From assembly GCA_903860135.1 (NCBI GenBank), contig CAIOPG010000009.1, positions 175,805 through 239,804 of the forward strand: DNA of 64,000 bases, read 5' to 3'. The DNA comes from Candidatus Omnitrophota bacterium (GTDB taxonomy: Bacteria; Omnitrophota; Gorgyraeia; Zapsychrales; Fredricksoniimonadaceae). A program made the position numbers and the translations under genes. This document shows, piece by piece, positions 25,365-41,586 of the stretch. The stretch's first letter is position 1; the number at the start of each line of letters is the position of its first letter. The notes beneath the pieces are model-generated. The model worked only from the letters and a program-made list of their open reading frames with translations, searched no databases and was not told the DNA's origin.

Positions 25365-27080
25365 TCAACGCAACTTCAGCCCCCTCTTGCTCAATTGTAT
25401 GATCTTATCCAATCTTGGTCCATCCCCCAGAATGCTACCAATGATCTTAAGCCCCCGTGTCACGCCACCAGTGCCTTCGGCGTGCTCGAGTGCCAACAAA
25501 AAATTGATCGCCAACTCATCCGTATAATGTGAAGGCAATATCCGTTCAAGATACGTCACCGACACAGGATATTGCTTGATCGCGTAATAATAATCTGCCA
25601 TCCCCAACTGCCCATAATAAGATAATGGCACCTTATTGAATATCCGTTCAAAAGCCGCCTTCCCGTCATCCAAACGACCCAACTGTAAATAACAAACGCC
25701 AAGATAGTAATTTGAAAGCGTTGCGTCACACCCTGGATCTTTCAGGGCAAGCAAAAAATTATCTACTGCCTCTTGATATTTCTTCAATCGAAAAAACTCC
25801 GTTCCTTTAAAGAAATAGCCCATGTGGTGCTCTGGATAAGCCTTGACCCAAGCCTCACCCAGAGAGAAATTGCTCCGCCATACCAAATTACTTGTGATGG
25901 CGGGAAGAAGTAACGAAACGATGGCCGCAGAACATAAAAAATACCGCATCCCCGCCGATAAGCGACCACCCCATACCCGCCCCCAATATACAAGGAGCGT
26001 GGCCATCAAGAACGCTATACCCACAAAAGGGATATACATATAACGCAAAGCAACTGGATTGGGATTAACCCAATAAACCAAAGCCGGCAAAAAGAAAACA
26101 CACACCCATAATGCCGCCCATGAAACCTTTGTACGCCTCATTATTAAAATAATCATTGAAGCCATCAGCGTAACAACCAGAAATGCCAGACCTATCATGT
26201 CAACAGAAAGCCATGGGCGCGGCAATGGCCAATATAGAGGCGGCATAACACCAGCAGAAAGAACAAAACAGATCTCTTTTAAATAAAGTGCCACGATCTG
26301 AACAAAAACCGACATATACTCCTGCCAGCCATACCCGACAGCAAAGTTACGTATAAAACCAGTATTCTGGAAAACAAAGAAATATACATACAAATAAAAG
26401 AATGAAATAAAAAAGAACGGCCAATAGGGCCGTTGTTTTATAACCTTTGCCTCCAGCCCAAGAATCGTTCTGTCAAAGAATACAATGACCAATGGAAAGA
26501 AGAGGGCTGTCTCTTTGGAAAACAGTGCCAGAAAATAAGCTGTATACGCAAGAATGGCCCACAGCGCAGTAATCTTCTTTCGAAAATAAAGCCAGGATTG
26601 AAACGCGATCAAGAGAAAAAAACAAGCCAGCAAGTCTGATCTGTAGCCTATCGCAGCAACAGGTTCCGTATTAGCAGGATGAATAGCAAAAATAATGGCG
26701 GCTGACAAAGCTACGAGCGGTGTCGAAAGAAGCGCAACGATCTGATAAAGCAAAAGGACATTGGCCAAATGCAATACAAGACTTGTCAGATGATACCCGA
26801 AAGGGCGATTATCCCAACCCAAACAATCAAAGAAGAAACTCATCGTCGTCATAGGCCGGTAAGCTACTGACCCCGTTCCCTTGTCAGGAGAATGGCCATA
26901 CAGCACTTCATCGGGAATAACATTATACCCGGAACGGAAAATTCTAACGATATTGGACGAGTTTTTATAAAAAGAATTGTTGCCAAAGAGAGCATGATCA
27001 TCACCGGCAAAACCATTCCATAAAACACATGAAAAACACAATAGAATCAAAACAACAAGGCTGATCTTATGCTTGAACAT
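25365..27080 (-). CDS. Polytopic membrane protein of the GT-C glycosyltransferase superfamily (TMTC/PMT-like, DUF1736-type) with C-terminal TPR repeats
   Basis: 571 aa. About 10 TM helices; early loop motif [16 protein letters not shown] typical of GT-C Dol-P/undecaprenyl-P-sugar-dependent transferases; C-terminal ~150 aa TPR-like. AT-rich codon usage unlike neighbouring recA/rsmE. Confidence 0.5.
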
Positions 27081-27092
27081 TATAGCGTCACT

Positions 27093-27839
27093 TCAACTCA
27101 AGGAATTGTTTAGGATCGCAAAAGATACAACCGCTATCGCGGCTGTATCCACTTTTAAAACATTCTCACCGAGAGTCACAGGCACCGCACCAGCTAGCAC
27201 GGCTTCGACTGCTTCCTCAGGCGTGAAATCTCCTTCAGGTCCAATAAAAAAAACAAAATCCCCTGCATTTCGGCGCGCCGCCAGCGCCATACCCAAAGAA
27301 ATCCGTTCTCCTTCAAGCCATGGGAAAAAAAGAAATTTTCCGGGAACAGCTGTCATGGCCAGCGTTTGGAAGAAAGAAACCGGTAATGTGATCTCGGGAA
27401 ACCATGGACGCTTGCACTGTTTGGCCGCGTTGAGCGCCACCCTCTGGTAACGGGCAAGTTTATGATCAGCTTTCTCGCCGTGCACGTCGTTCTCGGTCCT
27501 TGCCGTAACCATAGGGATAATACGGTCCACCCCTAGCTCGGTGCACTTTTCAATGATCGTTTCAAATTTGGTTCTTTTGGGGATGGCGCAGGCCAGCGTG
27601 ATGTGCGGCCCATGATGCCTCGGAACAACGACAAGAGATCTGATATCAACCCAGGCCGCTGTGCGTGAAACCTCCCGAAGCACCCCTTGCGCCACGCCCC
27701 CTTGCCCGTTCACGATCTCGACGCTATCGCCTGCCTTCAAGCGCAGGACACGGGTCACATGGGCAAATTCATCAGGGTCATCGAGCAAAATACGCGTATC
27801 ATGGCCGGAAAATGGATGGAAAAATCTTCCCGCAGACAC
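27093..27839 (-). CDS. rsmE: 16S rRNA (uracil1498-N3)-methyltransferase RsmE
   Basis: 248 aa; PUA-like N-domain (HVTRVLRLKAGDSVEIVNGQG), SPOUT C-domain (AIPKRTKFETIIEKCTELGVDRIIP). Confidence 0.85.
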   Translation of the reverse strand: MSAGRFFHPFSGHDTRILLDDPDEFAHVTRVLRLKAGDSVEIVNGQGGVAQGVLREVSRTAAWVDIRSLVVVPRHHGPHITLACAIPKRTKFETIIEKCTELGVDRIIPMVTARTENDVHGEKADHKLARYQRVALNAAKQCKRPWFPEITLPVSFFQTLAMTAVPGKFLFFPWLEGERISLGMALAARRNAGDFVFFIGPEGDFTPEEAVEAVLAGAVPVTLGENVLKVDTAAIAVVSFAILNNSLS

Positions 27840-27841
27840 GC

Positions 27842-28474
27842 CTAATAACCCCCGGCATTTTCTCGGAAAGTGATGCTGACTTGAGGATTGTCCGTTGTGC
27901 CAGCTGTAAGTGCCCCGGCACTCACAGCCGCGCCAGCAGACGGTGTTTTTCGTCCAACGACGGTCATCTGAAAATAATATTCTCCGGTAGCCCCATCAGC
28001 CACCAGCACAGGATCAGCAATATTGGCATGTGTAAACATATCTTTGACAACATACCCCTCAAAGGTATCTCCCGTAGTACAAGTACCCACTGCCGTCAAT
28101 TCACAACTATATACCGCTGTCTGATCAAGATCACCCGGCTTACTGAAGCAAGTCCAGTTGTCATCTGTGTAAATCTCGGGTGTGAATGCTCCCGATACCT
28201 GGACATCATGCCGAAAACAAAGTGACGAATTGGTGTTATTCAAGTAAATATTTACGCCTGTATCCGAAGGCGATCCATGAAGGCTCCGCACACTCATCCG
28301 TATCTTGTTCACTAAGTATTGAGCTTGGATGTTAATCAAGGCTTCCGAAGAAACATTACTGCCACTCTTGCGCAGTCCATAATCCACACTAAAAATGGCT
28401 GCCATCATGAAGGTGACAATAATGCTCGCCACAATAAGTTCAGCCATTGTAACGGCAGAAGAAGATACTTTCAT
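27842..28474 (-). CDS. Prepilin-type minor pilin-like protein (~210 aa, PilW/GspJ-like size class)
   Basis: Start set at ATG 28472-28474: MKVSSSAVTMAELIVASIIVTFMMAAIFS, a degenerate N-terminal pilin helix with Glu at +5-like position. Last gene of the pilin array. Confidence 0.5.
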   Translation of the reverse strand: MKVSSSAVTMAELIVASIIVTFMMAAIFSVDYGLRKSGSNVSSEALINIQAQYLVNKIRMSVRSLHGSPSDTGVNIYLNNTNSSLCFRHDVQVSGAFTPEIYTDDNWTCFSKPGDLDQTAVYSCELTAVGTCTTGDTFEGYVVKDMFTHANIADPVLVADGATGEYYFQMTVVGRKTPSAGAAVSAGALTAGTTDNPQVSITFRENAGGY

Positions 28475-28476
28475 AA

Positions 28477-28830
28477 TCACCAATTTACCGTCACAGTAAC
28501 CTGGCGCGTTGTCCCGAAGCCAGCTACAACCGTGTAACTGGCTGATGTCATCGAGGTGCAATTGGGATAGGATGCCACAGTAACAGCATGCGCACCGAGC
28601 GTAAGCACGCCCGTACTCCATGTAGAACCCGCCACCGACTTATTCAAGCTATCCAGTATCTCTTTACCGCATAACCCCGCAACCATCCTCGCTTCCGATC
28701 CACGCCCCGAGACCCGCGTTTGGACAATGGTAGCCAAAACCCCCGCAGATGCCACCACAAAAATAACAGACGCGACAATAACCTCGGTCATAGAAAAACC
28801 TGCCTGATCCGTATAAAATTTCATGGACAA
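28477..28830 (-). CDS. Type IV prepilin-like protein (GspI/PilV-like minor pseudopilin)
   Basis: Leader ..QAG|FSMTEVIVASVIFVVASAGV with G(-1) F(+1) E(+5), a class III signal peptide. Confidence 0.7.
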   Translation of the reverse strand: MSMKFYTDQAGFSMTEVIVASVIFVVASAGVLATIVQTRVSGRGSEARMVAGLCGKEILDSLNKSVAGSTWSTGVLTLGAHAVTVASYPNCTSMTSASYTVVAGFGTTRQVTVTVNW

Positions 28831-29210
28831 TTAGCCCCCGCGCATGAAGGATTAGTTCCGGCCACAACTGGACTTGCTAATGTGACCGTGACCGTCAGAC
28901 CAGATCCAATACTGCCCACACATGTCCCGCTACCACAGGAATACGACACCCCGTCAGCAATAATATGTGTAGCCAACGCCGTATTGATAGCATTGATATC
29001 AGCAGCTACCAGATTAGTGCCGTTGTTATACAAACGATACTGGGCATTGGCGGCATGAATGATACTCAAATTATCCACAACAGAACGCCCGCGCGTGCGA
29101 TCAATCGTCTTAATAAACTGCGGGATAGCCATACCAACCAATATTCCGGAAATGACAAAAATAACCATTAACTCAATCATGGTAAAAGCTTCATTATAAA
29201 GTTTAGTCAT
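28821..29210 (-). CDS. Cys-rich prepilin-like protein, paralog A
   Basis: Start at ATG 29208-29210 (ATGA overlap): MTKLYNEA|FTMIELMVIFVISGIL; C-terminus ..SYSCGSGTCVGSIGSG..NPSCAGANCP. Confidence 0.65.
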   Translation of the reverse strand: MTKLYNEAFTMIELMVIFVISGILVGMAIPQFIKTIDRTRGRSVVDNLSIIHAANAQYRLYNNGTNLVAADINAINTALATHIIADGVSYSCGSGTCVGSIGSGLTVTVTLASPVVAGTNPSCAGANCP

Positions 29211-29581
29211 GGACAACTTGTTCCTGTACATGTCGCAACGCCCGAACTTGTGTTCGGAGTTGTTACAACAAATCCCGTACCCGTAGCCGTGCATTCCGTA
29301 CCTGAAGAACAAGAATATGTGGCACCATCAGCCTTAATATTTAACCCGAGAGCCGTATTTATGGCAGCCACATCTCCAGCCGTAGTATTAGCTCCAGAAC
29401 GTGAAAGAAAGAGGGCATTAGCCGCATGAATAATCGAAATGTTCGTCATGGCCGAACGCGCCTTTGACCGTAAAATAGTTTTTGAAAACTGCGGAACAGC
29501 AAATGCGGCAATGATTGAAATGATGCTCAAAACAACAATAAGTTCAATCAGCGTAAACCCGCTACGCATAAAATACCTCAT
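29207..29581 (-). CDS. Cys-rich prepilin-like protein, paralog B
   Basis: Start ATG 29579-29581 (ATGA overlap): MRYFMRSG|FTLIELIVVLSIISIIAA; IIHAANALF..AINTALGLNIKADGATYSCSSGTECTATGTGF..TCTGTSCP. Confidence 0.7.
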   Translation of the reverse strand: MRYFMRSGFTLIELIVVLSIISIIAAFAVPQFSKTILRSKARSAMTNISIIHAANALFLSRSGANTTAGDVAAINTALGLNIKADGATYSCSSGTECTATGTGFVVTTPNTSSGVATCTGTSCP

Positions 29582-29973
29582 GGGCAACTTGAACCAGAAC
29601 AAGATGGATTTGAGTCACTTAACGCAGTAGCCAACGTGAGCGTCTCTGTAAACCCTGAACCTGTCGCAAGGCATGTCCCTGAATCAGTACAGGAATAAGT
29701 CACTCCATTCGACGTGATCTTTAACTCCAGAGCCGTATTAATGGCCACTAAATTTCCGGCTGTAGATGCATTAACATTTGAATTATTATTACGTAAACGA
29801 TAATACCCATTAGCCGCGTGGATCAGATTAAGATTGGCGATCCCTGCACGTGCATAGGCACGCTTGGTACTTTTTGAAAGAAGCGTGGTCGCAAAAATTG
29901 CTAAAATACCAACAAGCGCCAACACAATTATCATTTCAATGAGCGTAAAAGCCTGACGCATAGTTGGTCTCAT
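29578..29973 (-). CDS. Cys-rich prepilin-like protein, paralog C
   Basis: Start ATG 29971-29973 (ATGA overlap; ORF-track GTG start 29979): MRPTMRQA|FTLIEMIIVLALVGIL; LIHAANGYY..AINTALELKITSNGVTYSCTDSGTCLATGSGF..NPSCSGSSCP. Confidence 0.7.
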   Translation of the reverse strand: MRPTMRQAFTLIEMIIVLALVGILAIFATTLLSKSTKRAYARAGIANLNLIHAANGYYRLRNNNSNVNASTAGNLVAINTALELKITSNGVTYSCTDSGTCLATGSGFTETLTLATALSDSNPSCSGSSCP

Positions 29974-30389
29974 GCGCACGGCGTATTAGGACAAATTTTC
30001 TTAAGTGTGTCCGGACATGAACCACACGAAAAAGCACCCGCTGCAGACACACTAACAGTATATGAACCTGTCGCTGGCTGAACAGCGGATTTTATCGTCA
30101 ATGAAACAGCACCCGTTGATGTATTGCACACAGGTGCCGCAAAATTCGTCGGCGTAACCGTTACATCCAGATTGGCACAAGCGGCACTGGTATCATAGGT
30201 GCTTTTTTCAAGATTATACCTTATCTGAGCCGCGTTGAGCGTGTTAAGGACATTAATCCCTTCAGTAAAGATCGTTTGATCCTTCGCTCCTACCATACGC
30301 GGTACAGCCAACGACGCCAATACACCAATGATAACAATCACGACGATAATTTCAATTAATGTAAAAGCAGACGATCGTATTATATTCAT
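29970..30389 (-). CDS. Prepilin-like protein (139 aa)
   Basis: MNIIRSSA|FTLIEIIVVIVIIGVLASLAVP; C-terminal Cys cluster FSCGSCPDTLKKICPNTPCA. Confidence 0.7.
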   Translation of the reverse strand: MNIIRSSAFTLIEIIVVIVIIGVLASLAVPRMVGAKDQTIFTEGINVLNTLNAAQIRYNLEKSTYDTSAACANLDVTVTPTNFAAPVCNTSTGAVSLTIKSAVQPATGSYTVSVSAAGAFSCGSCPDTLKKICPNTPCA

Positions 30390-30401
30390 ACCATTCCAAA
30401 A

Positions 30402-30818
30402 CTAATTCTTCAATGTTGAAAAAATCCCACCCTTTATCTTTGTAACAGTTCCCGCAGGGGCATTCAGCCTAAGCGTGATCGTATCAGCAACTCCTGCACC
30501 ACCTTTTAAAGTAGCTGTCGCACCGCAAGCAGATGCATTCGCACATTCAGTAGCGGTAAATGAATACGTAAAATTAGTTGATGCCGTTGGAAATGAATAG
30601 CCCGATATTGCTGTTATATTATTACATGCCGTATAATCTTCACTGTTCTGAATATAACATTCCTGGACTTTGCGCATCAAAACGCCAAGCTGCATATAAG
30701 CCTCTGCCGCTTTGGCAATATTCACCTGAGCGCTAAGACGCGGCAAAGCTACTGCGGCCAAAACACCAATGATGATAACAACAATGATGATCTCGATTAG
30801 TGTAAAGCCTTTTTTCAT
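30402..30818 (-). CDS. Major-pilin-like type IV pilin, tandem copy 1
   Basis: MKKG|FTLIEIIIVVIIIGVLAAVALPRL..; Ser/Thr-rich C-terminal half with a Cys pair; ends ..KGGIFSTLKN. Confidence 0.75.
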   Translation of the reverse strand: MKKGFTLIEIIIVVIIIGVLAAVALPRLSAQVNIAKAAEAYMQLGVLMRKVQECYIQNSEDYTACNNITAISGYSFPTASTNFTYSFTATECANASACGATATLKGGAGVADTITLRLNAPAGTVTKIKGGIFSTLKN

Positions 30819-30836
30819 TACTTACCCCATTTCCAA

Positions 30837-31256
30837 TTAATTCTTTAATGTAGAGAAAATACCGCCCTTGGTTTTTGTAACAGTTCCCGCAGGGGCATTC
30901 AGGGTAAGCGTGATCGTATCAGCAACTCCTGCACCACCTTTTAAAGTAGCTGTCGCACCGCAAGCAGATGCATTCGCACATTCAGTAGCGGTAAATGAAT
31001 AGGTAAAATTACTTGATGCCGTTGGAAATGAATAGCCCGATATTGCTGTTACATTATTACATGCCGTATAATCTTCACTGTTCTGAATATAACATTCCTG
31101 GACTTTGCGCATCAAAACACCAAGCTGCATATAAGCCTCTGCCGCTTTGGCAATATTCACCTGAGCGCTAAGACGCGGCAGTGCTACTGCGGCCAAAACA
31201 CCAATGATGATAACAACAATGATGATCTCGATTAGTGTAAAACCCTTTTTTTTCAT
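30837..31256 (-). CDS. Major-pilin-like type IV pilin, tandem copy 2 (about 5 aa differences from copy 1)
   Basis: MKKKG|FTLIEIIIVVIIIGV..; near-identical to copies 1 and 3. Confidence 0.75.
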   Translation of the reverse strand: MKKKGFTLIEIIIVVIIIGVLAAVALPRLSAQVNIAKAAEAYMQLGVLMRKVQECYIQNSEDYTACNNVTAISGYSFPTASSNFTYSFTATECANASACGATATLKGGAGVADTITLTLNAPAGTVTKTKGGIFSTLKN

Positions 31257-31313
31257 ACATTTCCTTTTTTAGTGTTTTATTAGTATGTTCCTGCATTAAT
31301 AATATTTTTGGAA

Positions 31314-31730
31314 TTAATTCTTCAAAGTTGAAAAAATACCACCCTTTGTTTTTGTAACGGTTCCCGCAGGGGCATTCAGCGTAAGCGTGATAACATCCGC
31401 CGCCGCACCACCTTTTAAAGTAGCTGTCGCACCGCAAGCAGATGCATTCGCACATTCAGTAGCGGTAAATGCATATGTAAAATTACTCGATCCAGTTGGA
31501 AAGGAATAACCAGATATCGCTGTTACATTATTGCATGCCGCATAATCTTCACTATTCTGAACATAACATTCTTGGACTTTGCGCATCAAAACACCAAGCT
31601 GCATATAAGCCTCTGCCGCTTTGGCAATATTCACCTGAGCGCTAAGACGCGGCAACGCTACTGCGGCCAAAACACCGATAATGATAACAACAATGATGAT
31701 CTCGATTAGTGTAAAACCTTTTTTTTTCAT
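31314..31730 (-). CDS. Major-pilin-like type IV pilin, tandem copy 3
   Basis: Same N-terminus; substitutions clustered in the variable region (ECYVQ, DYAAC, PTGSSNFTYAF, GGAAADVITL). Confidence 0.75.
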   Translation of the reverse strand: MKKKGFTLIEIIIVVIIIGVLAAVALPRLSAQVNIAKAAEAYMQLGVLMRKVQECYVQNSEDYAACNNVTAISGYSFPTGSSNFTYAFTATECANASACGATATLKGGAAADVITLTLNAPAGTVTKTKGGIFSTLKN

Positions 31731-31787
31731 ACATTTCCTTTTTTAGTGTTTTATTAATATCTTCCTGAATTAAAAATATTTTTAAAA

Positions 31788-32222
31788 TTAATTCTTCAAA
31801 GTTGAGAAAATACCCCCCTTTGTTTTTGTAATCGAACCAGCTGAAATATCCAGCTTAAGAGTGATAACATCCGCAGCGTTCGCATTGGTTCCACTGAATG
31901 AAGCTTGACCTACACAATTATTAGCATCTGGACACAGAGAAGAATTAAAATTATATGTAAAATTAGGAGTTACTGGAAATGTATAACCTGATAGAGCTGT
32001 CACCTCGTTGCATCCCGCCATGATGTCACCATTTTGAATATAACATTCCTGGACTTTGCGCATCAGAACACCCAGTTGCCTATAGGCCTCAACGGCTTTT
32101 GTAGTATTAACCTGATTCGTAACACGAGGCATAGCTATCGCTGCTAAGACTCCAATAATTATAACAACAATTATTACTTCAATCAATGTAAACCCATTTT
32201 TATACACGTATATCCTACCCAC
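31788..32222 (-). CDS. Major-pilin-like type IV pilin, diverged copy 4
   Basis: MGRIYVYKNG|FTLIEVIIVVIIIGVLAAIAMPRV..; shares AYxQLGVLMRKVQECYIQN and the C-terminal ITKTKGGIFSTLKN with copies 1-3 but has a diverged central region. Confidence 0.7.
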   Translation of the reverse strand: MGRIYVYKNGFTLIEVIIVVIIIGVLAAIAMPRVTNQVNTTKAVEAYRQLGVLMRKVQECYIQNGDIMAGCNEVTALSGYTFPVTPNFTYNFNSSLCPDANNCVGQASFSGTNANAADVITLKLDISAGSITKTKGGIFSTLKN

Positions 32223-32281
32223 ATGTTATCTGTATACAAATATGACATATTTAAATAAATAAAGCGAATATAAATAATTAA

Positions 32282-33508
32282 TTATCCTCCGGTAGATAAA
32301 GAAAGTATAGGTAGAAACATCGCGATAACAATTAGACCTATTACACCACCCATGATAACAAGCATAACGGGTTCAATAAGAATGCTGAATCGCTTCAAAA
32401 ATTCTTCAACATTAGCTTTATAATATATGGCGACATTATTCAACATCTTGCCAAGCTCACCGGTTTCCTCGCCAACACGGATCATCTGCACCGTCATCGA
32501 AGGGAAAAATCCACTTCTTTCCATTGGATCTGCCAAAAGCTGCCCCTCACGTACGGCTTCACGCACATTTCTTATAACTTCCGCACAAACCACATTATCC
32601 ACCAGTCTCTCCGATATCTCCAAAGAATAAAGAATGGGGACACCGCTTTCCATAAGGGTGGACATTTGAGATGTAAACTTCTCAATTACAATTAATTTTA
32701 TCATACCACCGAAAATAGGAACTTTAAAAAGAAAAGTCTCAAATTGCTTTCTTCCAAGAGGTGTTTTAATGTAATTCATGAAAAGAAAAATGCTTCCGGC
32801 CCCTCCAGCAATAAGTATAAAAAATCTCTCTTTCAATAATTTGAAAATTGACATCATTATGACCGTGATAGTCGGGAGCTTGATATCCATATCAGAAAAA
32901 ATACGTTCAAATGTAGGCCCGACAAAAAGAGCGAAAAACAAAACAGCTCCGATACAAATAAAACAAAGAACCATCGGATAAACAAGGGCTCCTATAATAG
33001 TAGACTTGAACTTGGCTGTATCCTCCATATATTGTGTCAACTTGTTGAGAACTTTCGGTAATGTACCAGATGCTTCACCAACCTCAATAAGACTGACCCA
33101 AAAAGCAGTAAACACCTTGGGATATTTTGAAATAGCGCTACTGAAAGTACGACCCTGTTCAACATCTGTGACTACCGCCTCAATGATGACGGTTAACCCA
33201 CGACTTTCCAGCTGAGAGCTGATGATCTTGAGCGATCGCATTAACAAAACACCTGCTCCCATCATCGCAGAAAGTTGACGCGCAAAAGAAACAACATCAT
33301 TTAATGAAATATTATTGTGCGAAAACACCCGCTTCTTTGCAACTGACGTCACAGGCTGTTGATTCTCAACAAACTGTTTTACAGCGGTTACAAAAAGCCC
33401 TTTTTGCTGTGCAAACTTAACAGCCTGCTGATCATTAATGGACTCTACAACCTCATTAAATACATGCCCTGAATTATCTTTAGCAGTAACAAGAAATTTG
33501 GCCATCAA
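32282..33508 (-). CDS. pilC: Type IV pilus / T2SS platform protein (GspF/PilC family)
   Basis: 408 aa; two T2SSF repeats, three TM helices, typical PilC N-terminus. Confidence 0.9.
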   Translation of the reverse strand: MMAKFLVTAKDNSGHVFNEVVESINDQQAVKFAQQKGLFVTAVKQFVENQQPVTSVAKKRVFSHNNISLNDVVSFARQLSAMMGAGVLLMRSLKIISSQLESRGLTVIIEAVVTDVEQGRTFSSAISKYPKVFTAFWVSLIEVGEASGTLPKVLNKLTQYMEDTAKFKSTIIGALVYPMVLCFICIGAVLFFALFVGPTFERIFSDMDIKLPTITVIMMSIFKLLKERFFILIAGGAGSIFLFMNYIKTPLGRKQFETFLFKVPIFGGMIKLIVIEKFTSQMSTLMESGVPILYSLEISERLVDNVVCAEVIRNVREAVREGQLLADPMERSGFFPSMTVQMIRVGEETGELGKMLNNVAIYYKANVEEFLKRFSILIEPVMLVIMGGVIGLIVIAMFLPILSLSTGG

Positions 33509-33523
33509 TTTCCCCAGATCAAT

Positions 33524-35233
33524 TTATATAACAATAGATAAAATTTCCTCAAGGCTCGTGACACCTTCTTCAACCTTCTTCATCCCAACTTCAAAAAGTG
33601 TCGCCATTCCAGCTTTAGATGCTGCGTCCTTCAATTCGTCATAGGAAACATTGTTACCGATCATACGCCGTATAACATCATTAATGGCAAGAACCTCTGA
33701 TACGACCATGCGTCCCCTGTATCCGGTGTGCCCGCATTTATCGCACCCTTTAGCGCGATAAATCAAATCGGTAGACAACTTGATAGACCCCAGATCTTCC
33801 GGCCTCGGTTCATAGGGCTCTTTGCAATCGGCGCATAACTTACGCGCTAAGCGCTGGCTCACAATCATCGTTAATGACGGTGTTAATAAATATGAGGGGA
33901 CACCTATATCCATCAAGCGGCTTATCGCTGACGGTGCGTCATTGGTATGCAGTGTTGAAAGGACAAAGTGACCTGTTAATGCCGCACGCACACATATCTC
34001 TGCTGTCTCAAGATCACGTATTTCACCAACCATAATGATATCCGGATCCTGTCGAAGAAACGATCGTAACGCCTGTGCAAATCCAAAGCCAATATCAGGA
34101 CGCACATGAACCTGGTTAATTCCATCAATGCGGAACTCAACAGGATCTTCTGCTGTCATAATATTCTTGGTGCGATCAAAAACTTCAGAAAGAGAAGAAT
34201 AAAGGGTCGTCGACTTACCACTACCCGTAGGTCCTGTTATAAGAAAAAGACCATACGGAACTTTAAGTGCTTTACGGATGAGTTCTAACTGGGACGCATT
34301 AAATCCAAGCGTAGCCAAATCAAGTTTTACTGCATTCTTATCCAGGATACGCATAACCACTTTCTCTCCCCAAACGGTAGGAACGGTGGACACACGCAGA
34401 TCAACAACACGGTTTTGATCAAACTTTACAGAAATACGCCCATCCTGCGGCAATCGCCTCTCGGCAATGTCAAGCCTAGAAATGATCTTAATGCGCGATA
34501 CGATCGAAGCATGAAGATGTTTTGCCGGCGGAGGGATTTGATAAAGATCACCGTCGATACGATAACGAAGTTCGATCTTGTCCTTAAAAGGTTCGATATG
34601 AATATCACTTGCCCGGTCATCAATAGCCTGCCTGATAATAAGATCCACAAGCTTGATGATCGGCGCTTCTTCGGCTGTTGCGATCAACCTGTCAAGACTT
34701 AACTCCGACTCAGATTTATCATCACCGGATGTTGAGAAATTACTCGAGTCATTCTGCGCTCTTTCAACCGCCTTTCCCCAAGCACCACCCTCATCGGCCA
34801 GATAAAACCGCTCCAATGATTTTAGAATATCGGTACGTGTCGCAATGACAAAGTTTATTTCACAACCAGTCATCTTTTTCAAATTATCGATCATAATAAG
34901 ATCAAATGGATTAAAGATCGCGCATGTCAGTGAATTACCATTCCGATTAAGTAACAATACAAGATTATCTACAGCATACTGATACGAAATAAGCTTTTCA
35001 AGGCCCTGCCCTTTTTGAGGATTCAATAGGCCTGAAGCTTCGGAGGCATATGGAATAAGAAGCTGTGTCCCAAGAGCCACAGCCAAGTCGCTTTCATTAA
35101 TAAATCCCATTTTGACCAAAATTTCTCCGACATGACTCTTGTCGGTCTTTTGGGCATCTATAGCAGACTGGAACTGGGCTTCGGTAATTAAGCCCTTTTT
35201 AATAAGTATTTCACCAAGCTTTAACCGTGCCAT
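33524..35233 (-). CDS. pilB: Type IV pilus assembly ATPase (GspE/PilB family) with two N-terminal MshEN/T2SSE_N-like repeats
   Basis: Walker A ITGPTGSGKSTTLYS; Asp box, Walker B and His box region; tetracysteine motif CADCKEP..CDKCGHTGYRGR. Confidence 0.9.
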   Translation of the reverse strand: MARLKLGEILIKKGLITEAQFQSAIDAQKTDKSHVGEILVKMGFINESDLAVALGTQLLIPYASEASGLLNPQKGQGLEKLISYQYAVDNLVLLLNRNGNSLTCAIFNPFDLIMIDNLKKMTGCEINFVIATRTDILKSLERFYLADEGGAWGKAVERAQNDSSNFSTSGDDKSESELSLDRLIATAEEAPIIKLVDLIIRQAIDDRASDIHIEPFKDKIELRYRIDGDLYQIPPPAKHLHASIVSRIKIISRLDIAERRLPQDGRISVKFDQNRVVDLRVSTVPTVWGEKVVMRILDKNAVKLDLATLGFNASQLELIRKALKVPYGLFLITGPTGSGKSTTLYSSLSEVFDRTKNIMTAEDPVEFRIDGINQVHVRPDIGFGFAQALRSFLRQDPDIIMVGEIRDLETAEICVRAALTGHFVLSTLHTNDAPSAISRLMDIGVPSYLLTPSLTMIVSQRLARKLCADCKEPYEPRPEDLGSIKLSTDLIYRAKGCDKCGHTGYRGRMVVSEVLAINDVIRRMIGNNVSYDELKDAASKAGMATLFEVGMKKVEEGVTSLEEILSIVI

Positions 35234-35242
35234 AATTTAATC

Positions 35243-36745
35243 CTATTTCTTTTGTACACTCATAGAGTCCATGGCAGAACGAATAATGCTCTGTCTTATC
35301 ACACCGCTACTTTCGCGAATTCCAAGATCAGCAGGAACAGTGTCAACAACGAAATCACTGCCAGGATCCATGACACGGGGGGTAATAAAAATAAGGAGCT
35401 CCCTGTCTTTGGTAGTCGTAGTATCGTGACGGAACACACGCCCGAGAAAAGGAATGTCTCCTAAGACCGGAAGTTTTGTCTGAACTTTTTGTTTCTCAGA
35501 ACGTAACAATCCTCCGAGAACAACAGTTTCACCCGAATGTATCCTCATTTTAACCTTAGCACTACGGATCTCTGTGTCCTTAAAAGTCACCCCGCTATAA
35601 GTTCCACCCAAACGCGCAACAACCACGCGTGGTGAAACAGCCAGTAAAATATCACCTGTCATCAAATTTAACTGAGGCGTGACCGTCAACGTAATCCCCG
35701 TCTCAACTCGTTCAGGTTCAACAGTGGATCCTTGCGTTATTGTCGCCGCTGCCGTCACTTTAACACCAATAGCTTCCGACGCAGTAATCTTAATCTGTGC
35801 CGTTTCATTATTCATGGTCCAAATTCTTGGGCGCGCTAAATTCCTAGCATCTGTTGACGTCTTTAAAAACTGTAACATAGCCGAAAAAGCATTTCCGCCC
35901 ATCGCGCCCTGTGAATACGTAACCTCTGTGCCCCCCTTACTAAGTGCATTCTTTTGGTCAAGAGGGAAATAAAAACTCCTCCCTCCCAGTCCTTTGAAAT
36001 CATATAAGGTGTTGCCAAACTTAACACCTATCTCATCAGCTACTTCCTTAGAAACATCTATCATCTGGACTTCAATCAATATCTGGGCAACCGGCACATC
36101 CAGTTTAGCCAATGTTCGTTCGATCAAAGGAAAATTTGTATCTTCATCAGAAATGATCAGGCTGTTGGTCCGTGAATCTTCAGCGATCTTGGCCGAAGCT
36201 GTTAATACTGTTTTCAAAATATCCACGAGAGCAACGCTCGTCGTTACTGTATTGCTCCCAGCACTCGACGATCCATTACCCCCCCCTTCTTCTGCGGTAA
36301 TTCCGAATGTTGATTGCAACTTTGAAGATGCAACAGTAGCATATTTTAAAGGATAAACACGCGTTATGATATTCTTTTCAGCCTTGATATTATCGATCAT
36401 CAAAATATTGTCATTATTATCATATGAATAAGAAAGTCCATTTGCCGTCAAAATTTTTTTCAAAGCATCCTCAACAGGAACAGCATCAAGAAAAAGTGTT
36501 ATAGGGTCGGTTTTAACAGCGTCTGAAACAATAAAATTGGCACCTATCTGACGAGAGAAGGCCTTCAAAACATCCCTGATATCTGCATTCTTGAAATCAA
36601 GGGAAACAAGTTGAGAATATTGTGGAAGTATAAAACTGTTCTGACTACCAGCTGAAGTAGTGGCAGAAAAAACTTGAGTAAATAAAGAAATTTGAATAAT
36701 ATTGGTAAGTAAAAATATAAATAAATATTTATTTTTTAAACCCAT
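35243..36745 (-). CDS. pilQ: Secretin (PilQ/GspD family), compact 500-aa form with signal peptide and N0-like domain; no AMIN domains
   Basis: N0 motif FKNADIRDVLKAFSRQIGANFIV; C-terminal secretin signature VVLGGLLRSEKQKVQTKLPVLGDIPFLGRVFRHD..ELLIFITPRV. Confidence 0.8.
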   Translation of the reverse strand: MGLKNKYLFIFLLTNIIQISLFTQVFSATTSAGSQNSFILPQYSQLVSLDFKNADIRDVLKAFSRQIGANFIVSDAVKTDPITLFLDAVPVEDALKKILTANGLSYSYDNNDNILMIDNIKAEKNIITRVYPLKYATVASSKLQSTFGITAEEGGGNGSSSAGSNTVTTSVALVDILKTVLTASAKIAEDSRTNSLIISDEDTNFPLIERTLAKLDVPVAQILIEVQMIDVSKEVADEIGVKFGNTLYDFKGLGGRSFYFPLDQKNALSKGGTEVTYSQGAMGGNAFSAMLQFLKTSTDARNLARPRIWTMNNETAQIKITASEAIGVKVTAAATITQGSTVEPERVETGITLTVTPQLNLMTGDILLAVSPRVVVARLGGTYSGVTFKDTEIRSAKVKMRIHSGETVVLGGLLRSEKQKVQTKLPVLGDIPFLGRVFRHDTTTTKDRELLIFITPRVMDPGSDFVVDTVPADLGIRESSGVIRQSIIRSAMDSMSVQKK

Positions 36746-36749
36746 ACTA

Positions 36750-37301
36750 TCAATCTTTCAATAATAACTTGTAAAGAAATTCGTTGTAATCTATTTCCAC
36801 ACGGCCTTTGCGGATAGCCAAAATCCTTACCCCCTCTGATCTATCCCCCAAACCCAATATATTTCCATTTAAAATAACCATTGGATTCCTTGTTTTATAA
36901 AATATTCCTGTCACTTTCAGCACAGGCAACGAGGCTATTGATAATTTCCTTACAGGTTGCGCTGAGGGTATCGCAACAAAGTGCTTTATTTCAGGAATAA
37001 CAGCAACTATCGGTCTATCTACTACTGGCTTAACTAAATTATCAGCTTCCTTGCGAAAATCTTTACTAACAAGATCTGGTCTGGCTTTAAACGGATGGAA
37101 AGGCTCCCCAAGAGACTCTATCATCATTTCAAACGGAAGCTTATTAGTCTCATTGGCGTAAGAAAGAGTTGAATTAAAATGAAATAATTGAAAACTATAG
37201 ATAAAAAGAATATTATACATTAAAAAAAGATGATGCCTACTTCTTTTTAAAATTTTTATGTTCATTATCTTCCACCAGTTGAAGCAACGAAATGGTAACA
37301 T
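36750..37301 (-). CDS. Putative PilP-like inner-membrane lipoprotein/anchor (weak)
   Basis: N-terminal hydrophobic anchor, then a C-terminal beta-rich segment (VTGIFYKTRNPMVILNGNILGLGDRSEGVRILAIRKGRVEIDY) resembling the PilP secretin-binding domain. Position between pilO and pilQ fits. The true start is uncertain; the ORF overlaps pilO-like by up to 65 nt. Confidence 0.4.
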   Translation of the reverse strand: MLPFRCFNWWKIMNIKILKRSRHHLFLMYNILFIYSFQLFHFNSTLSYANETNKLPFEMMIESLGEPFHPFKARPDLVSKDFRKEADNLVKPVVDRPIVAVIPEIKHFVAIPSAQPVRKLSIASLPVLKVTGIFYKTRNPMVILNGNILGLGDRSEGVRILAIRKGRVEIDYNEFLYKLLLKD

Positions 37302-37866
37302 CCAGCGTCATCGCATCCGTCTGGACTCCTGAATTAACCGGATTGTACTTAATCAACAGGCTATCCAATTTGATCATGTACCCGGAAGATTCCATATCAT
37401 GAACAAATAATAGCATATCCTTGACATTAAGGGAAGAAGCACTAAAACTCATACAAATAGAACGAAAAAAACCATCATTGCTAGTCTGCAATGGATTAAA
37501 AGCATCAATTGTAATTCGTCGCCGCGTGGCACGCCCTGTAACATAAGATATAAAATCAGCCTTGACCAATCCCAAAGGCATCTTGCACATATAATCAGTC
37601 AGATATTTGTTGCTTTGCTCAAGATCCTGGATAGGCTGTCTTTTTGATTGCAAAATCTTTTTTCTCGACGCAAGAGACTGATATTGATTAAAATTTTTAG
37701 TTGTAAGAAAAACTATTACACAAAATCCCAATAAAACAATCAAAGAATTAGTCGCTAAAACTAAATTCTGATTTACATAATGGTTACAATCCTTAATAAA
37801 TTTTGAAGGATTATTTAGATATATTTCGAAATTCTTTAAATCATCAAGATTCATTTCGCCTCGCAC
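37237..37866 (-). CDS. Putative PilO-like protein (single TM, coiled coil, C-terminal ferredoxin-like region)
   Basis: 209 aa, bitopic topology and position right after the PilN-like module; no strong sequence motif. Confidence 0.45.
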   Translation of the reverse strand: MRGEMNLDDLKNFEIYLNNPSKFIKDCNHYVNQNLVLATNSLIVLLGFCVIVFLTTKNFNQYQSLASRKKILQSKRQPIQDLEQSNKYLTDYMCKMPLGLVKADFISYVTGRATRRRITIDAFNPLQTSNDGFFRSICMSFSASSLNVKDMLLFVHDMESSGYMIKLDSLLIKYNPVNSGVQTDAMTLDVTISLLQLVEDNEHKNFKKK

Positions 37867-39455
37867 GTAATCGAAAACGCTGTGACTTTTCTATTATCAT
37901 ATTCTCGAACCTGTAAAGAAACAATCTTAATTTGTGTGAAATTAGTGGCGAACAAATTATCGCTATTTAAAGCATTAAAGAAATGATTAACCCTTTCAAA
38001 TTCTATATTGTTGTCCTTCAAAGACACATACCCCGAAAAGGTCATTGCCGTCTTGGTCTGAAGTGAATAATAATCAACCTCTTTGTTCCCGGGCTCAGGG
38101 ACCTTGCGCGCCGAAACAGGCTCATCTTTAAAAGACAAACTAACAGACTCAAGCCAAAATCCGGATGGCAGTCGTTTGACCAGCCGCACCAACATCTTTG
38201 TCGCCCGTGCATCGAAAGGCAATGATTTCAATGAAAATAACTTCTTGACATTCTTCATTTTCTTCTGAACGGCGTCTGACTCATCTATATCAACGTATTC
38301 CCCGATCTCCTGCTCAAGATTAACAACTTCCTGTCTAAACTTAGACAGAAGCTGATCAGCAAAGAATGCAACAGAAAAGATCAGTGTAAAAACACCGGCC
38401 CCCACCGCCAAGGGCAAAACCAATGCTTGCCTCCTCTGGTCAATTTCAACTTGCTTGAGAGAAACCTGCTGTTTGGAACCTTCAAACAAATTAAAGTCAA
38501 TAACAGTAACCACTTTACTCATCATGGCCACGCCGTAGGCATACACAGCCGCCATTGTATTGCAATCATTGTGATCTACAAGTCTAAAAATATCAACAAT
38601 CTCAACATTGACCCCGAGTTCCTCTCCCATCTTGTCCCACAAAGCATTATTTCCGCCAATGGATATGGCCACCATTCTCTGGACTTCCTCCCCGCCATAC
38701 TGACGCAAGAAGAATTCGGAAGAAATACGGATCTCATTGAAAACTTTGGAACGTAGCTCATCATCGATCTGAAGAGTGCCAACACCCTGATGCACACCTC
38801 CCTGAAGATTAAACTCACGGATAAACTTGACATACCCTTTTTCACAAATAAGGAGTTCTCCGATATAACCATCGACATAAACAATCGCCGTTAATTCATC
38901 GGGATCAACGATCTTTCTAAAAACCAATGCACGGTAAAGACTAGCCGACGCCGGTTCACTGTAAACAACATTTATACCTGCTTGCATTAAAGCATCCGCA
39001 TGTTTTTCAAAAACATCTTTACGGATAGCAACAAATATAATGCCAATCTGCCGCGGATTACTTCCTAGAATATTCGAAGGAAAATATGTGTACGACAACT
39101 CATCAATTGGGAAAGGAATATACTTCTTGGCTTCGAAGATAACAACATCCTGTATCTCGCTTGACTTCATCCACGGAATACTGAACCAGCGAATAATAAT
39201 ATCTTTTGAAGGGATAGAAAGAAATGTTTCCTGCGTTGAAAAACCTTTATTTCGAACAGATTTTTGCAGTGCATCTAGAATCTGCATATCATGCGGTAAA
39301 GACTTCTTGTCAGCAGTGGAAGCCACGTCTTCCGGCGATACAAAAGGAACAAATGTCCCTATGGCGGGTGCGTTGCTCTCCAGTTGAACCAGCGTGAATC
39401 CGCTTGATCCCGAGTAAACCCCTAATCGCTTCTCACTGGCCATACCCAACCTCAT
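37851..39455 (-). CDS. pilMN: PilM-PilN fusion protein (actin-like ATPase-fold PilM followed by TM + PilN-like periplasmic domain)
   Basis: N-terminal GVYSGSSGFTLVQLE (PilM/FtsA-like phosphate-1 region); ~330 aa actin-like fold; then TM ALVLPLAVGAGVFTLIFSVAFF and a coiled-coil plus ~170-aa PilN-like tail. Alternative start ATG 39441-39443 has a GAGG SD. Confidence 0.7.
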   Translation of the reverse strand: MRLGMASEKRLGVYSGSSGFTLVQLESNAPAIGTFVPFVSPEDVASTADKKSLPHDMQILDALQKSVRNKGFSTQETFLSIPSKDIIIRWFSIPWMKSSEIQDVVIFEAKKYIPFPIDELSYTYFPSNILGSNPRQIGIIFVAIRKDVFEKHADALMQAGINVVYSEPASASLYRALVFRKIVDPDELTAIVYVDGYIGELLICEKGYVKFIREFNLQGGVHQGVGTLQIDDELRSKVFNEIRISSEFFLRQYGGEEVQRMVAISIGGNNALWDKMGEELGVNVEIVDIFRLVDHNDCNTMAAVYAYGVAMMSKVVTVIDFNLFEGSKQQVSLKQVEIDQRRQALVLPLAVGAGVFTLIFSVAFFADQLLSKFRQEVVNLEQEIGEYVDIDESDAVQKKMKNVKKLFSLKSLPFDARATKMLVRLVKRLPSGFWLESVSLSFKDEPVSARKVPEPGNKEVDYYSLQTKTAMTFSGYVSLKDNNIEFERVNHFFNALNSDNLFATNFTQIKIVSLQVREYDNRKVTAFSITCEAK

Positions 39456-39511
39456 TGCTTTTATAAAAATGAATACTTTTAGCTAATAATCAATCGCAAG
39501 AAACGTATGCA

Positions 39512-39841
39512 TCAGTAACTAACATCCATCGTGAATGCCCTTGTTGCCCCTGGTCCTCCGCCGGCTACTTGGGTATAATGAACCGAATATGTTGTTCCGT
39601 CAACATATTCAGAGAAATCCGTAAGTGTTGTCGAACCACCGGCGTAAATCTCGCGTGCCCACCATAAAGCTTTTTTGGCAATAAGTTCCGCCTGAAGATG
39701 CTTTCTTTCACGTTCGGAAATAAGTGCCTGTGAATAATTTCGCGATAACACACCTAAAACCAAGATTGACATAAGCATAACAGCCGCAATAACTGTCAGT
39801 AAAATTACCCCCCGCTCACTACCGTATTCTCTTCTAATCAT
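39512..39841 (-). CDS. PilX N-terminal-domain-like minor pilin (109 aa with the start chosen at ATG 39839-39841)
   Basis: MIRREYGSERGVILLTVIAAVMLMSILVLGVLSRNYSQ matches the PilX_N pattern (RG-x-x-L-hydrophobic helix-LRTS/SRN). 8-nt overlap with the upstream Zn-ribbon gene. The longer ORF-track version (39952) would overlap that gene by 119 nt. Confidence 0.45.
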   Translation of the reverse strand: MIRREYGSERGVILLTVIAAVMLMSILVLGVLSRNYSQALISERERKHLQAELIAKKALWWAREIYAGGSTTLTDFSEYVDGTTYSVHYTQVAGGGPGATRAFTMDVSY

Positions 39842-40073
39842 GAATTCCCTCCTCAAGATAACTCTGACAAAGTGGACAACGCACAACCTCAGTCTTTCCG
39901 TTACTGATAATGATATGGCTGCAATAGGGGCATTGCCTAACAATACCCGCACTTGATGCCTCCCTGTTTACGCCATCATCCACAACGGCATATTTAAACC
40001 ACATAAACCCAAAAAAAATAATCATGACAGAAAGACAAAGACTTACGCCCAAGGCAATATCTATCGTGATCAT
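39834..40073 (-). CDS. Small bitopic membrane protein with C-terminal CxxC-x17-CxxC zinc ribbon (79 aa), function unknown
   Basis: TM IALGVSLCLSVMIIFFGFMWF, then VRQCPYCSHIIISNGKTEVVRCPLCQSY. Linked by overlapping stop/start codons to both neighbours (ATGA upstream, 8-nt overlap downstream). Confidence 0.4.
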   Translation of the reverse strand: MITIDIALGVSLCLSVMIIFFGFMWFKYAVVDDGVNREASSAGIVRQCPYCSHIIISNGKTEVVRCPLCQSYLEEGIHD

Positions 40074-40498
40074 GGCAACCTCAAACGAAGATCTAATGGT
40101 GCTACAGGAACATCCTCAACAACTGCCACAGAAGGTTCATCGCGATCCTCAGGAACAACCCTTACACCGGAAAAATGAAATATATCCTTATCCTCCGGTG
40201 GCATACTTCTATAAAAAGATTCAGGTTTCTCTGCCTGCAAGGAGCGCAACCACCCTCCTGATAAGTATAATGGTACGGTACTATCATTAATCTTTTCTTC
40301 AACTTGCAGGACTGAAACTTCATGACGCGAAGGAATAACTTCCTGCGGGCTTAAAATATTGCCCAAGAAGACAACATCGAGTTTGTACGTGTTGTTAACA
40401 GCTCCTTTAAATGAAAAGATCACAAAAGTTAAAGCGATGGCGTGCATGATGCCCGCCGTTAATACCCCTATCATCGGAGAATGCCACTTCACTAGCAT
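40070..40498 (-). CDS. TonB/TolA-like N-terminal module (His-containing TM anchor plus Pro/Glu-rich extended segment); no recognisable TonB C-terminal domain
   Basis: 142 aa: IGVLTAGIMHAIALTFVIFSF (TM with conserved-position His as in TonB SxxxH), then P/E/V-rich low-complexity to the end (..PEDRDEPSVAVVEDVPVAPLDLRLRLP). Occupies the TonB/TolA position after exbB-exbD; TAATG overlap with exbD. Confidence 0.35.
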   Translation of the reverse strand: MLVKWHSPMIGVLTAGIMHAIALTFVIFSFKGAVNNTYKLDVVFLGNILSPQEVIPSRHEVSVLQVEEKINDSTVPLYLSGGWLRSLQAEKPESFYRSMPPEDKDIFHFSGVRVVPEDRDEPSVAVVEDVPVAPLDLRLRLP

Positions 40499-40896
40499 TA
40501 CTTCTCACGATCCGTAGCAATATTAATATGCTCGATCCCCATGCTGCGGGCAAGATTCAGGATGTCCACAACACGACCAACCGATGCCCGGTGATCCGCC
40601 TTGATCAAGATGGCTCTGGCATTGCCGCCAGGAAATGCTAAAAACTCTTTAAGTTCACCCAGCGTGATCAAATGATTATTCACATACACAACATTCTCGC
40701 CCGTCACAATGATCGTCAAACTTGACGGAGAGGCTATGTCGCTTGTCACTCCTTTGGGCAAGGCGATCTTTAAGAACGATGATTTTGAAATAAATAAAAT
40801 AAACGCTATAAAACCCAATAGAATAAATAATACATTCAAAAAAGGAAAGAAATTAAATTTTGGCACACATAATTTCAAATGCCTACGGAAATCCAT
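40498..40896 (-). CDS. exbD: Biopolymer transport protein ExbD/TolR family
   Basis: 132 aa; N-terminal TM FNFFPFLNVLFILLGFIAFILFI, periplasmic ExbD fold with ..IKADHRASVGRVVDILNLARSMG.. Confidence 0.8.
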   Translation of the reverse strand: MDFRRHLKLCVPKFNFFPFLNVLFILLGFIAFILFISKSSFLKIALPKGVTSDIASPSSLTIIVTGENVVYVNNHLITLGELKEFLAFPGGNARAILIKADHRASVGRVVDILNLARSMGIEHINIATDREK

Positions 40897-40899
40897 GCC

Positions 40900-41568: not shown

Positions 41569-41586
41569 TTAGGCATCCTTCGGCTA

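Follow-up and report, generated by a model that had tools for sequence, protein, structure and literature searches.

A tandem array of four type IV pilin genes evolving in concert within a pilus gene cluster of Candidatus Omnitrophota

Organization of the pilin gene array

We analyzed an array of prepilin genes in a 64,000-nucleotide stretch of a Candidatus Omnitrophota genome (GenBank assembly GCA_903860135.1, contig CAIOPG010000009.1, positions 175,805 to 239,804). This whole stretch is referred to below as the window, and all coordinates are window positions unless another contig is named. On the minus strand, region 30402-32222 consists of four intact prepilin open reading frames (ORFs) placed head to tail in the order D-C-B-A (Table 1). 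All four copies have a Shine-Dalgarno-like sequence, the prepilin residues G-1, F+1 and E+5 and a stop codon. The leader and N-terminus read MKK(K)G followed by FTLIEIIIVVIIIGVLAAVALP in copies A-C, and MYKNG followed by FTLIEV... in copy D. Copy D could also be read from a GTG codon at 32222, which would give 144 residues. The GTG codon at 32207 is the more likely start, since the gene callers used in two other assemblies chose the 139-residue form.

A self-comparison of the array had been proposed in an earlier, sequence-only reading of this DNA (the original prediction). A repeat search recovered a 300-nt repeat family with 94-98% identity, whose members are spaced at 435 and 474 nt. A second family, of 191 nt, takes in copy D (76% identity). 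At the DNA level, A and B are 95.0% identical, A and C 91.1%, and B and C 91.8%, while D shares 68-72% with the other three. The corresponding amino acid identities to A are 96% for B, 92% for C and 63% for D. The two 57-nt spacers are the same at 51 of 57 bases. Thus, the original prediction was right about three nearly identical tandem pilin genes with a diverged fourth, about the duplicated 57-bp AT-rich spacer, and about every amino acid difference that it listed among the copies. Three of its details need correction. The fourth copy, given as 31788-32222, does exist, but its start is more likely to be 32207. The C-terminus, which was described as an invariant ITK(T/I)KGGIFSTLKN, is in fact VTK(T/I)KGGIFSTLKN in A-C and ITKTKGGIFSTLKN in D. 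Finally, the repeats are not 'perfect direct repeats', as the longest exact runs in common are 82 nt (B-C) and 66 nt (A-B).

The differences among the copies are mainly synonymous (26.8 synonymous versus 7.2 non-synonymous between B and C). Outside the leader, the A, B and C proteins differ at only 10 aligned positions, corresponding to nine substitutions and one deletion of a single residue. All of these lie past residue 56, none within the N-terminal helix, and the changes are chiefly conservative (I/V, S/T, A/G, S/A). When placed on an AlphaFold model, they map to the alpha-beta loop, beta-1, the beta-2/beta-3 loop, beta-3 and beta-4. Copy D has a distinct head domain, with an identity to B in the central region of 45%. 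The copies can be told apart by peptides such as NNITAIS versus NNVTAIS, LRLNAP versus LTLNAP and the D-specific FSGTNANAADVITLK; further copy-specific peptides are NNITAISGYSFPTASTNF (A), NNVTAISGYSFPTASSNF (B) and YAACNNVTAISGYSFPTGSSNF (C).

Identity and predicted fold of the pilins

Both N-terminal prepilin models matched the array proteins above their cut-offs: Pfam PF07963 (N_methyl) with 28.8 and 31.4 bits (cut-off 21.2) and the NCBIfam prepilin domain TIGR02532 with 33.5 and 34.6 (cut-off 16.3). The AlphaFold2 model of copy B (mean predicted local distance difference test score, pLDDT, of 78.1) has the long helix (residues 8-58) and the four-stranded sheet (84-89, 98-105, 114-120 and 125-130) of the pilin fold. 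Its best Foldseek match in the PDB is the full-length PAK pilin 1oqw (template modeling score 0.63, probability 1.00, E = 0.016). In a profile search against the PDB, PilA proteins of type IVa (T4a) pili rank first; GspG, the major pseudopilin of type II secretion systems (T2SS), comes 19th (E = 5e-6). Two Thermus pilins (6xxd, 6xxe, 8qqj) are also among the profile matches. The GspG model TIGR01710 scores 41.4 bits with B and 42.7 with D, against a cut-off of 88.85, and aligns to the N-terminal helix only. By this equivalog score, the proteins do not classify as GspG. This mismatch, the ranking of the PDB profile matches and the PAK pilin fold match together place the array genes among the T4a-type pilins, in keeping with their description as major-pilin-like in the original prediction. 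The source names of their homologs are from Candidatus Omnitrophota. Four cysteines occupy the central part of the protein (C55, C66, C93 and C99 in B numbering). The pair C55/C66 is invariant in the pilin family, and the second pair is missing in several relatives.

Support for four copies and variants among assemblies

Near-identical tandem genes are liable to misassembly by short-read metagenome assemblers. Strain variants of a single pilin gene might have been strung together in tandem, or the true copy number might differ from four. Over 11.7 kb the window is 100% identical to a 272,553-bp MEGAHIT contig in ENA, and the gene table of a 258,189-bp contig of a different sample is the same (139, 138, 139 and 138 residues). 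L010, a contig assembled with SPAdes in a different study, shares 92% DNA identity with the window over 8.6 kb and retains the D-C-B-A order together with all three junction types. Hereafter we denote the window strain as W and the strain of L010, which is about 8% divergent across the locus, as X. The same order with 57-, 57- and 18-nt junctions is therefore found in three assemblies, one of them from a divergent strain, another assembler and another study. The 18-nt B-A junction, a type that occurs only once in the array, is also present in L010 and in the sibling scaffold L011. In addition, the gene ends display positional orthology between the two strains (see below). The array contains no exact repeat longer than 82 nt, so that its copies are resolvable by reads or k-mers of about 140 nt; this length is below the k of 141 suggested by the contig name 'k141_' and below typical read lengths. 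Moreover, a collapse of repeats would reduce the copy number rather than increase it. The four-copy array is thus established.

Some assemblies do depart from this arrangement, and they are what an artefact would have in its favor. In L011, a gap of 100 N begins in the 5' part of C and ends in the 3' part of B. Over 8.3 kb it differs from the window at five positions only, all of them inside copy A and all with the base found in B; these B-state bases are interrupted by retained A-state bases. A sibling contig of 257,752 bp (ERZ1426842) is shorter by 437 bp, approximately one 435-bp unit, and has three copies. The last of these is a chimera of B (5' part) and A (3' part) that switches only once, between residues 69 and 82. 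A 1,676-bp contig holds D, a B-like copy and then A, with no C. The last two contigs were read from their gene tables alone. The unit-length and mosaic variants may be either true recombinants or assembly chimeras, and those of unit length could arise by unequal crossing-over. In any case, the gap in one sibling scaffold and the three-copy versions in two other assemblies bear out the warning of the original prediction that the repeats are an assembly hazard.

Age of the array and selection on the copies

Orthologous copies of W and X share 92.6-96.2% of their DNA, with synonymous divergence (dS) of 0.12-0.19. Within a genome, dS among the paralogs A, B and C is 0.14-0.33, and D is separated from the others by a dS of about 1.0-1.4. 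At the 3' ends and at the leader indel, the copies of the two strains pair cleanly by position (A-A', B-B' and C-C'), and the R/T118 and I/T129 differences are kept in both strains. Based on this positional orthology at the gene ends, the A/B/C triplication predates the split between W and X. The expansion is therefore not very young, contrary to what had been proposed: it is older than a strain split of about 8%, and the paralog dS of 0.14-0.33 compares with about 0.18 for orthologs.

The ratio of non-synonymous to synonymous divergence (dN/dS) is 0.04-0.28 in all 28 pairs. For example, the L010 orthologs of D and B are 96.2% and 95.5% identical in DNA, with dN/dS of 0.13 and 0.04, respectively. 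All four copies are maintained by purifying selection. These values lead us to reject positive selection on the head domain, give no signal of diversifying selection and speak against the surface variation suggested in the original prediction.

Over the 8 kb compared between W and L010, synonymous divergence itself is uneven, with a more than tenfold range: 0.05 in pilC, 0.12-0.19 in the pilin array and 0.35-0.74 in rsmE and the minor pilins downstream of the array. The pattern is suggestive of interstrain recombination, with a breakpoint close to the array.

Gene conversion among the copies

The six A, B and C genes of W and X contain 30 informative sites. Fourteen of them group positional orthologs and lie mostly at the gene ends, whereas 11 are central and group paralogs within one genome (W_A with W_B at four sites, X_A with X_C at three, X_B with X_C at two, plus others). 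The two classes of sites differ in position (Mann-Whitney p = 0.009). By the four-gamete test, 198 of 435 site pairs are incompatible. A permutation test of the pairwise homoplasy index (PHI) type gave p = 0.0019 with a three-site window and p = 0.00075 with a five-site window.

A further trace of exchange is the 14-nt tract GCGGATGTTATCAC common to C (31388-31401) and D (31861-31874). At its four distinguishing sites (alignment columns 339 and 343-345), C agrees with D, and other bases are found in A, B and the three X copies, among them the orthologous C of strain X. Since C and D have the tract in common, four bases away from all the other copies, we infer that D converted C in the W lineage. 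At the protein level, the tract turns a GAGVADTITL-type sequence into GAAADVITL. 

Similar signs are present elsewhere. In two other species (L002 and L009), the identity within tandem paralog pairs reaches 95-100% in the last ~130 nt and is 67-83% elsewhere, with an abrupt shift along the gene. Both marks of concerted evolution, likeness within the genome and clustered mosaic sites, are thus found. The copies evolve in concert through short gene-conversion tracts, including one from D into C. Consequently, the gene conversion envisaged in the original prediction is supported by the mosaic sites, the PHI-type test and the D-type tract in C.

Distribution in relatives

The number of major-pilin copies at the syntenic pilC-to-rsmE locus varies among relatives. 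There is one copy in L006-L008, two in L002, L009 and L093, at least two in L092 (the contig begins inside an upstream copy, making this a lower bound) and four in W and X. The expansion proposed in the original prediction is therefore lineage-specific. In a neighbor-joining tree, paralogs group by genome: D together with A/B/C (bootstrap 95) and the L002 pair (bootstrap 95). Another clade is formed by L009_139a (P0010) and the L009_139b-like P0007 (bootstrap 100). We also considered that the first and second copies of L002 and L009 might be positional orthologs. This is ruled out, as the paralogs are closer within the genome in every region of the protein. Tandem major-pilin paralogs grouping by genome thus recur across the clade. 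The pattern fits either repeated duplication or an old duplication homogenized by conversion, the latter being more economical.

The scan of genome contigs with the family alignment was driven by the universal N-terminal motifs. The matches listed were pilins of numerous phyla without close kinship to the array, and no member of the close family was among them, so that they say nothing about copy number. Two DNA-pattern scans of Joint Genome Institute (JGI) metagenomes for the 3' end encoding KGGIFSTLKN and a stop codon gave no matches in the first case and five in the second, none of them pilins.

The surrounding pilus gene cluster

The array is part of a cluster with the order PilM/N-like gene, two small genes, secretin, ATPase, platform, pilins D-C-B-A, six minor pilins and rsmE (Table 1). 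For the minor pilins (m1-m6) we adopted the gene calls of L001, whose sequence is the same as that of the window. Judging by the NCBIfam scores, the ATPase is nearer to PilB (622, cut-off 676) than to GspE (587, cut-off 630), both scores being slightly under the cut-off, and the platform is nearer to GspF than to PilC. The ATPase also has a predicted cyclic di-GMP-binding motif (56.9 bits versus a cut-off of 38).

Table 1. Features of the pilin array and of the surrounding gene cluster (window positions)
Feature	Position	Strand	Remarks
PilM-like protein with weak PilN-like C-terminus	37851-39455	-	PilM_2 46.9 bits; PilN weak; TIGR01175 pilM 67 bits, below cut-off
Two small proteins	37237-37866, 36750-37301	-	PilO/PilP-like candidates by position only
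Outer-membrane secretin	35243-36745	-	Pfam Secretin, Secretin_N, STN; NCBIfam GspD 195.7, PilQ 195.1
Assembly ATPase, PilB/GspE family	33524-35233	-	Pfam T2SSE 455 bits; N-terminal MshEN-type domain
Inner-membrane platform, PilC/GspF family	32282-33508	-	Pfam T2SSF 186 bits; NCBIfam GspF 317, PilC 291, both below cut-offs
Candidate sigma-70-type promoter TTGTTA-16-TATACT	32304-32331	-	Consensus scan, 9/12 matches
Pilin D	31788-32207	-	ORF call; 139 aa; leader MYKNG, then FTLIE; N_methyl 31.4 bits (cut-off 21.2)
D-C spacer	31731-31787	-	57 nt, AT-rich; Shine-Dalgarno-like AAAGGAAA
Pilin C	31314-31730	-	ORF call; 138 aa; D-type 14-nt tract at 31388-31401
C-B spacer	31257-31313	-	57 nt, AT-rich; duplicate of D-C spacer
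Pilin B	30837-31256	-	ORF call; 139 aa
B-A spacer	30819-30836	-	18 nt, contains GGGG; junction type found only here in the array
Pilin A	30402-30818	-	ORF call; 138 aa; leader MKKG
Minor pilin m1	29970-30389	-	N_methyl match
Minor pilin m2	29578-29961	-	N_methyl match
Minor pilin m3	29207-29569	-	N_methyl match
Minor pilin m4	28821-29210	-	N_methyl match
Minor pilin m5	28477-28824	-	N_methyl match
Minor pilin-like m6	27842-28480	-	Gene call

The minor pilins include a repeat family of their own. Genes m2, m3 and m4 (28821-29961) represent an older tandem triplet with 44-50% protein identity, each member having a terminal CxGxxCP motif. Accordingly, amplification of pilin genes at this locus extends beyond the major subunit. 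Relatives hold from one to three genes of the m2/m3/m4 type; in L002 and L009 one copy lies upstream of the major pilins.

Expression signals in and around the array

In the three spacers (57, 57 and 18 nt) we detected neither a terminator nor a promoter-like site, and their RNA folding did not exceed that of shuffled sequence. The D-C spacer, for example, is not stably structured (z = 0.38). Sigma-54 and other promoters in the 57-nt spacers were also considered, and inspection by eye gave no convincing site. The candidate sigma-70-type promoter (Table 1) is contained in the 3' end of the platform gene and precedes D by about 100 nt. By eye, the major pilin genes of L006, L002 and L009 also seem to have putative -10 sites of the TATACT type in front of them.

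The junction between major and minor pilins differs among lineages. After the last major pilin and before the minor pilins, L006 (6265-6349), L002 (6412-6499) and L009 (2172-2260) have hairpins with folding energies of the spacer from -29 to -43 kcal/mol, and a similar inverted repeat is discernible by eye in L093 (5418-5503). These hairpins are GC-rich, and their stem sequences vary among the four lineages while the pairing is kept. The hairpin is absent in the window, L010 and L092, where the gap between major and minor pilins is 12-14 nt. In the window it comprises the 12 nt between A and the first minor pilin (30390-30401).

Function of the array and alternative explanations

Taken together, the array is probably a concertedly evolving major-pilin family inside a type IV pilus operon, with A-C serving dosage and D being one specialized paralog. 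Transcription would start at a promoter upstream of D and yield a single polycistronic message for the array, as the spacers contain no promoter-like site, terminator or structure. Because A, B and C encode almost identical proteins, they may mainly boost the supply of the main fiber subunit. D, having a conserved yet different head domain, may be specialized for a second fiber type or as a co-polymerizing subunit. Both dosage and heteropolymer use are plausible. The number of genes may also take over part of the hairpin's role in setting the proportion of major to minor pilins. The array itself is an ordinary and expected mode of gene-family evolution and not a new mechanism.

Several points weigh against this reading. 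The clustering of copies by genome could also stem from independent duplications in each lineage instead of conversion. The machinery cannot be assigned cleanly to T4a pili or to T2SS, since all of its equivalog scores are below the cut-offs, and family scans found no gene for PilT or for the prepilin peptidase (PilD) within the 64-kb window. The pilins have no cysteine in the last 40 residues and thus lack the C-terminal disulfide loop (D-region) that is typical of T4a pilins. The promoter match is weak, given that the 39 sites of the scan are no excess over shuffled sequence (30.9 +/- 6.2). The link between loss of the hairpin and copy number is weak too, as two-copy lineages retain the hairpin. 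Finally, the case for co-transcription, for dosage and for a special role of D is built on sequence.

The alternative that survives best is that each copy, and not D alone, is sub-functionalized for a different filament, a different condition or a fixed heteropolymer, in the manner of tandem archaellins or of Thermus PilA4 and PilA5. The distinct head of D, which is conserved between the strains, accords with this, as do the pairing of A, B and C by position at the 3' ends of the genes, the retention of R/T118 and I/T129 across strains and the presence of two Thermus pilins among the PDB relatives. However, A, B and C differ at just the 10 mostly conservative positions noted above, they have no separate promoters or terminators between them, and conversion homogenizes them. 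We therefore consider sub-functionalization of every copy rather unlikely.

It might also be argued that the array serves programmed surface variation, with the paralogs acting as donors and recipients of conversion in a manner similar to Neisseria pilE/pilS. The mosaic sites and the significant PHI-type test could be taken in this sense, and so could the D-to-C micro-conversion that alters the protein, the mosaic A/B alleles in otherwise identical genomes and the restriction of amino acid differences to the head domain. However, every pair of copies is under purifying selection, and all copies are of full length, having a leader, a start codon and a ribosome-binding site, with no silent truncated cassette among them. 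We found no G-quadruplex (G4) motif (G3+N1-7 x4) on either strand of region 27,001-40,000, and no match to a recombinase or invertase among the scanned window ORFs of at least 120 residues. Besides, with so few differing positions among A, B and C there is little to shuffle, and the mosaic alleles could be assembly chimeras. Programmed variation is thus improbable. We assign a similarly low probability to a looser variant, in which the array would be a diversification module of expressed copies with frequent tract exchange, as the D-to-C micro-conversion and the B/A mosaics might suggest, and with gain and loss of units by unequal crossing-over. If it were true, clonal, ultra-small and possibly host-attached cells would show a shifting mixture of pilus surfaces and would need neither silent cassettes nor a recombinase dedicated to the task. 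A Neisseria-type system of silent cassettes proper is ruled out by the complete copies and by the lack of a G4 motif in the region scanned. An assembly artefact is very unlikely in view of the agreement among assemblies described above.

Comparison with known pilin and archaellin arrays

In Neisseria, the pilS copies are silent, promoterless and truncated at the 5' end, and transfer from them needs a G4 element. The antigenic variation of pilE/pilS (PMC4023411) resembles the array considered here in the non-reciprocal transfer of short tracts that changes head-domain residues. It differs in that all copies of the array are complete and translatable, no G4 motif was found and selection is purifying.

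Closer parallels are bacterial loci with more than one pilA gene. Tandem pilA genes are present in Stigmatella aurantiaca and two pilA genes in Pelobacter carbinolicus, and myxobacteria have from one to seven pilA homologs (PMC6060248). Duplicated pilins are often contiguous (bioRxiv 10.1101/576694). As in these tandem loci, the array is composed of complete co-oriented paralogs in or near an assembly cluster, with a conserved helix and a variable head. Unlike them, it has four copies, three of which are 92-96% identical in protein, and no C-terminal disulfide loop. It also differs in offering direct evidence of concerted evolution, in copy number varying among close relatives and in its uncultured Omnitrophota host.

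Thermus thermophilus makes wide and narrow pili from one machinery by means of PilA4 and PilA5. Such a combination of a single type IV pilus machine with several major pilins provides a model for D versus A/B/C. However, the Thermus genes encode distinct pilins and are not near-identical tandem repeats. Archaea have tandem archaellin flaA/flaB arrays, whose genes are co-transcribed and used together; archaellins are part of the type IV filament superfamily. A census is available (PMC4858521). The likeness, several adjacent genes for similar subunits, is organizational only, as archaellins represent another branch of the superfamily and form a rotary filament.

Within the phylum, the part of the survey by Seymour et al. 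(2023; PMC10066038) considered here reports T4a pilus genes in most genomes of all Omnitrophota classes and proposes that type IV pili attach the cells to hosts or prey. The phylum and the kind of cluster are the same as in our case, and that part of the survey contains no description of major-pilin families in tandem or of their concerted evolution.

The array also has practical consequences. Annotation should register four real pilin genes and not one. In quality control of metagenome-assembled genomes, the pilin locus should be regarded as a place where assemblies break or collapse. A main subunit encoded by several genes also bears on any future identification of the pilus subunit by proteomics or cryo-electron microscopy.

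Wider genomic setting

The cluster lies within a low-GC island at approximately 26000-44000 (35-47% GC compared with 50-55% in the flanks), which spans the pilus cluster, ExbB/ExbD-like genes and a large tetratricopeptide repeat (TPR) protein. The island is not a recent insertion, because the gene order is kept in relatives. All window ORFs of at least 120 residues with a family assignment are on the minus strand, making up an unusually long stretch of co-directional genes. GC skew is negative over the whole window, and the cumulative skew declines steadily to -4.37.

A TPR protein of ~570 residues (25365-27080) is encoded just past rsmE, downstream of the pilus locus, and its synteny is conserved (9271-10989 in L006 and 3932-5665 in L092). 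Its relatives give weak matches to PMT_2, a GT-C glycosyltransferase family. Given the Ser/Thr-rich heads of the pilins, it might be a pilin-modifying enzyme, although this is pure speculation. At the other end of the cluster, the 534-residue PilM-like protein (37851-39455) also matches the PilM-like family of Akkermansia Amuc_1101, and the secretin weakly matches Amuc_1098. These matches hint at a pilus architecture of the Planctomycetes-Verrucomicrobia-Chlamydiae (PVC) type.

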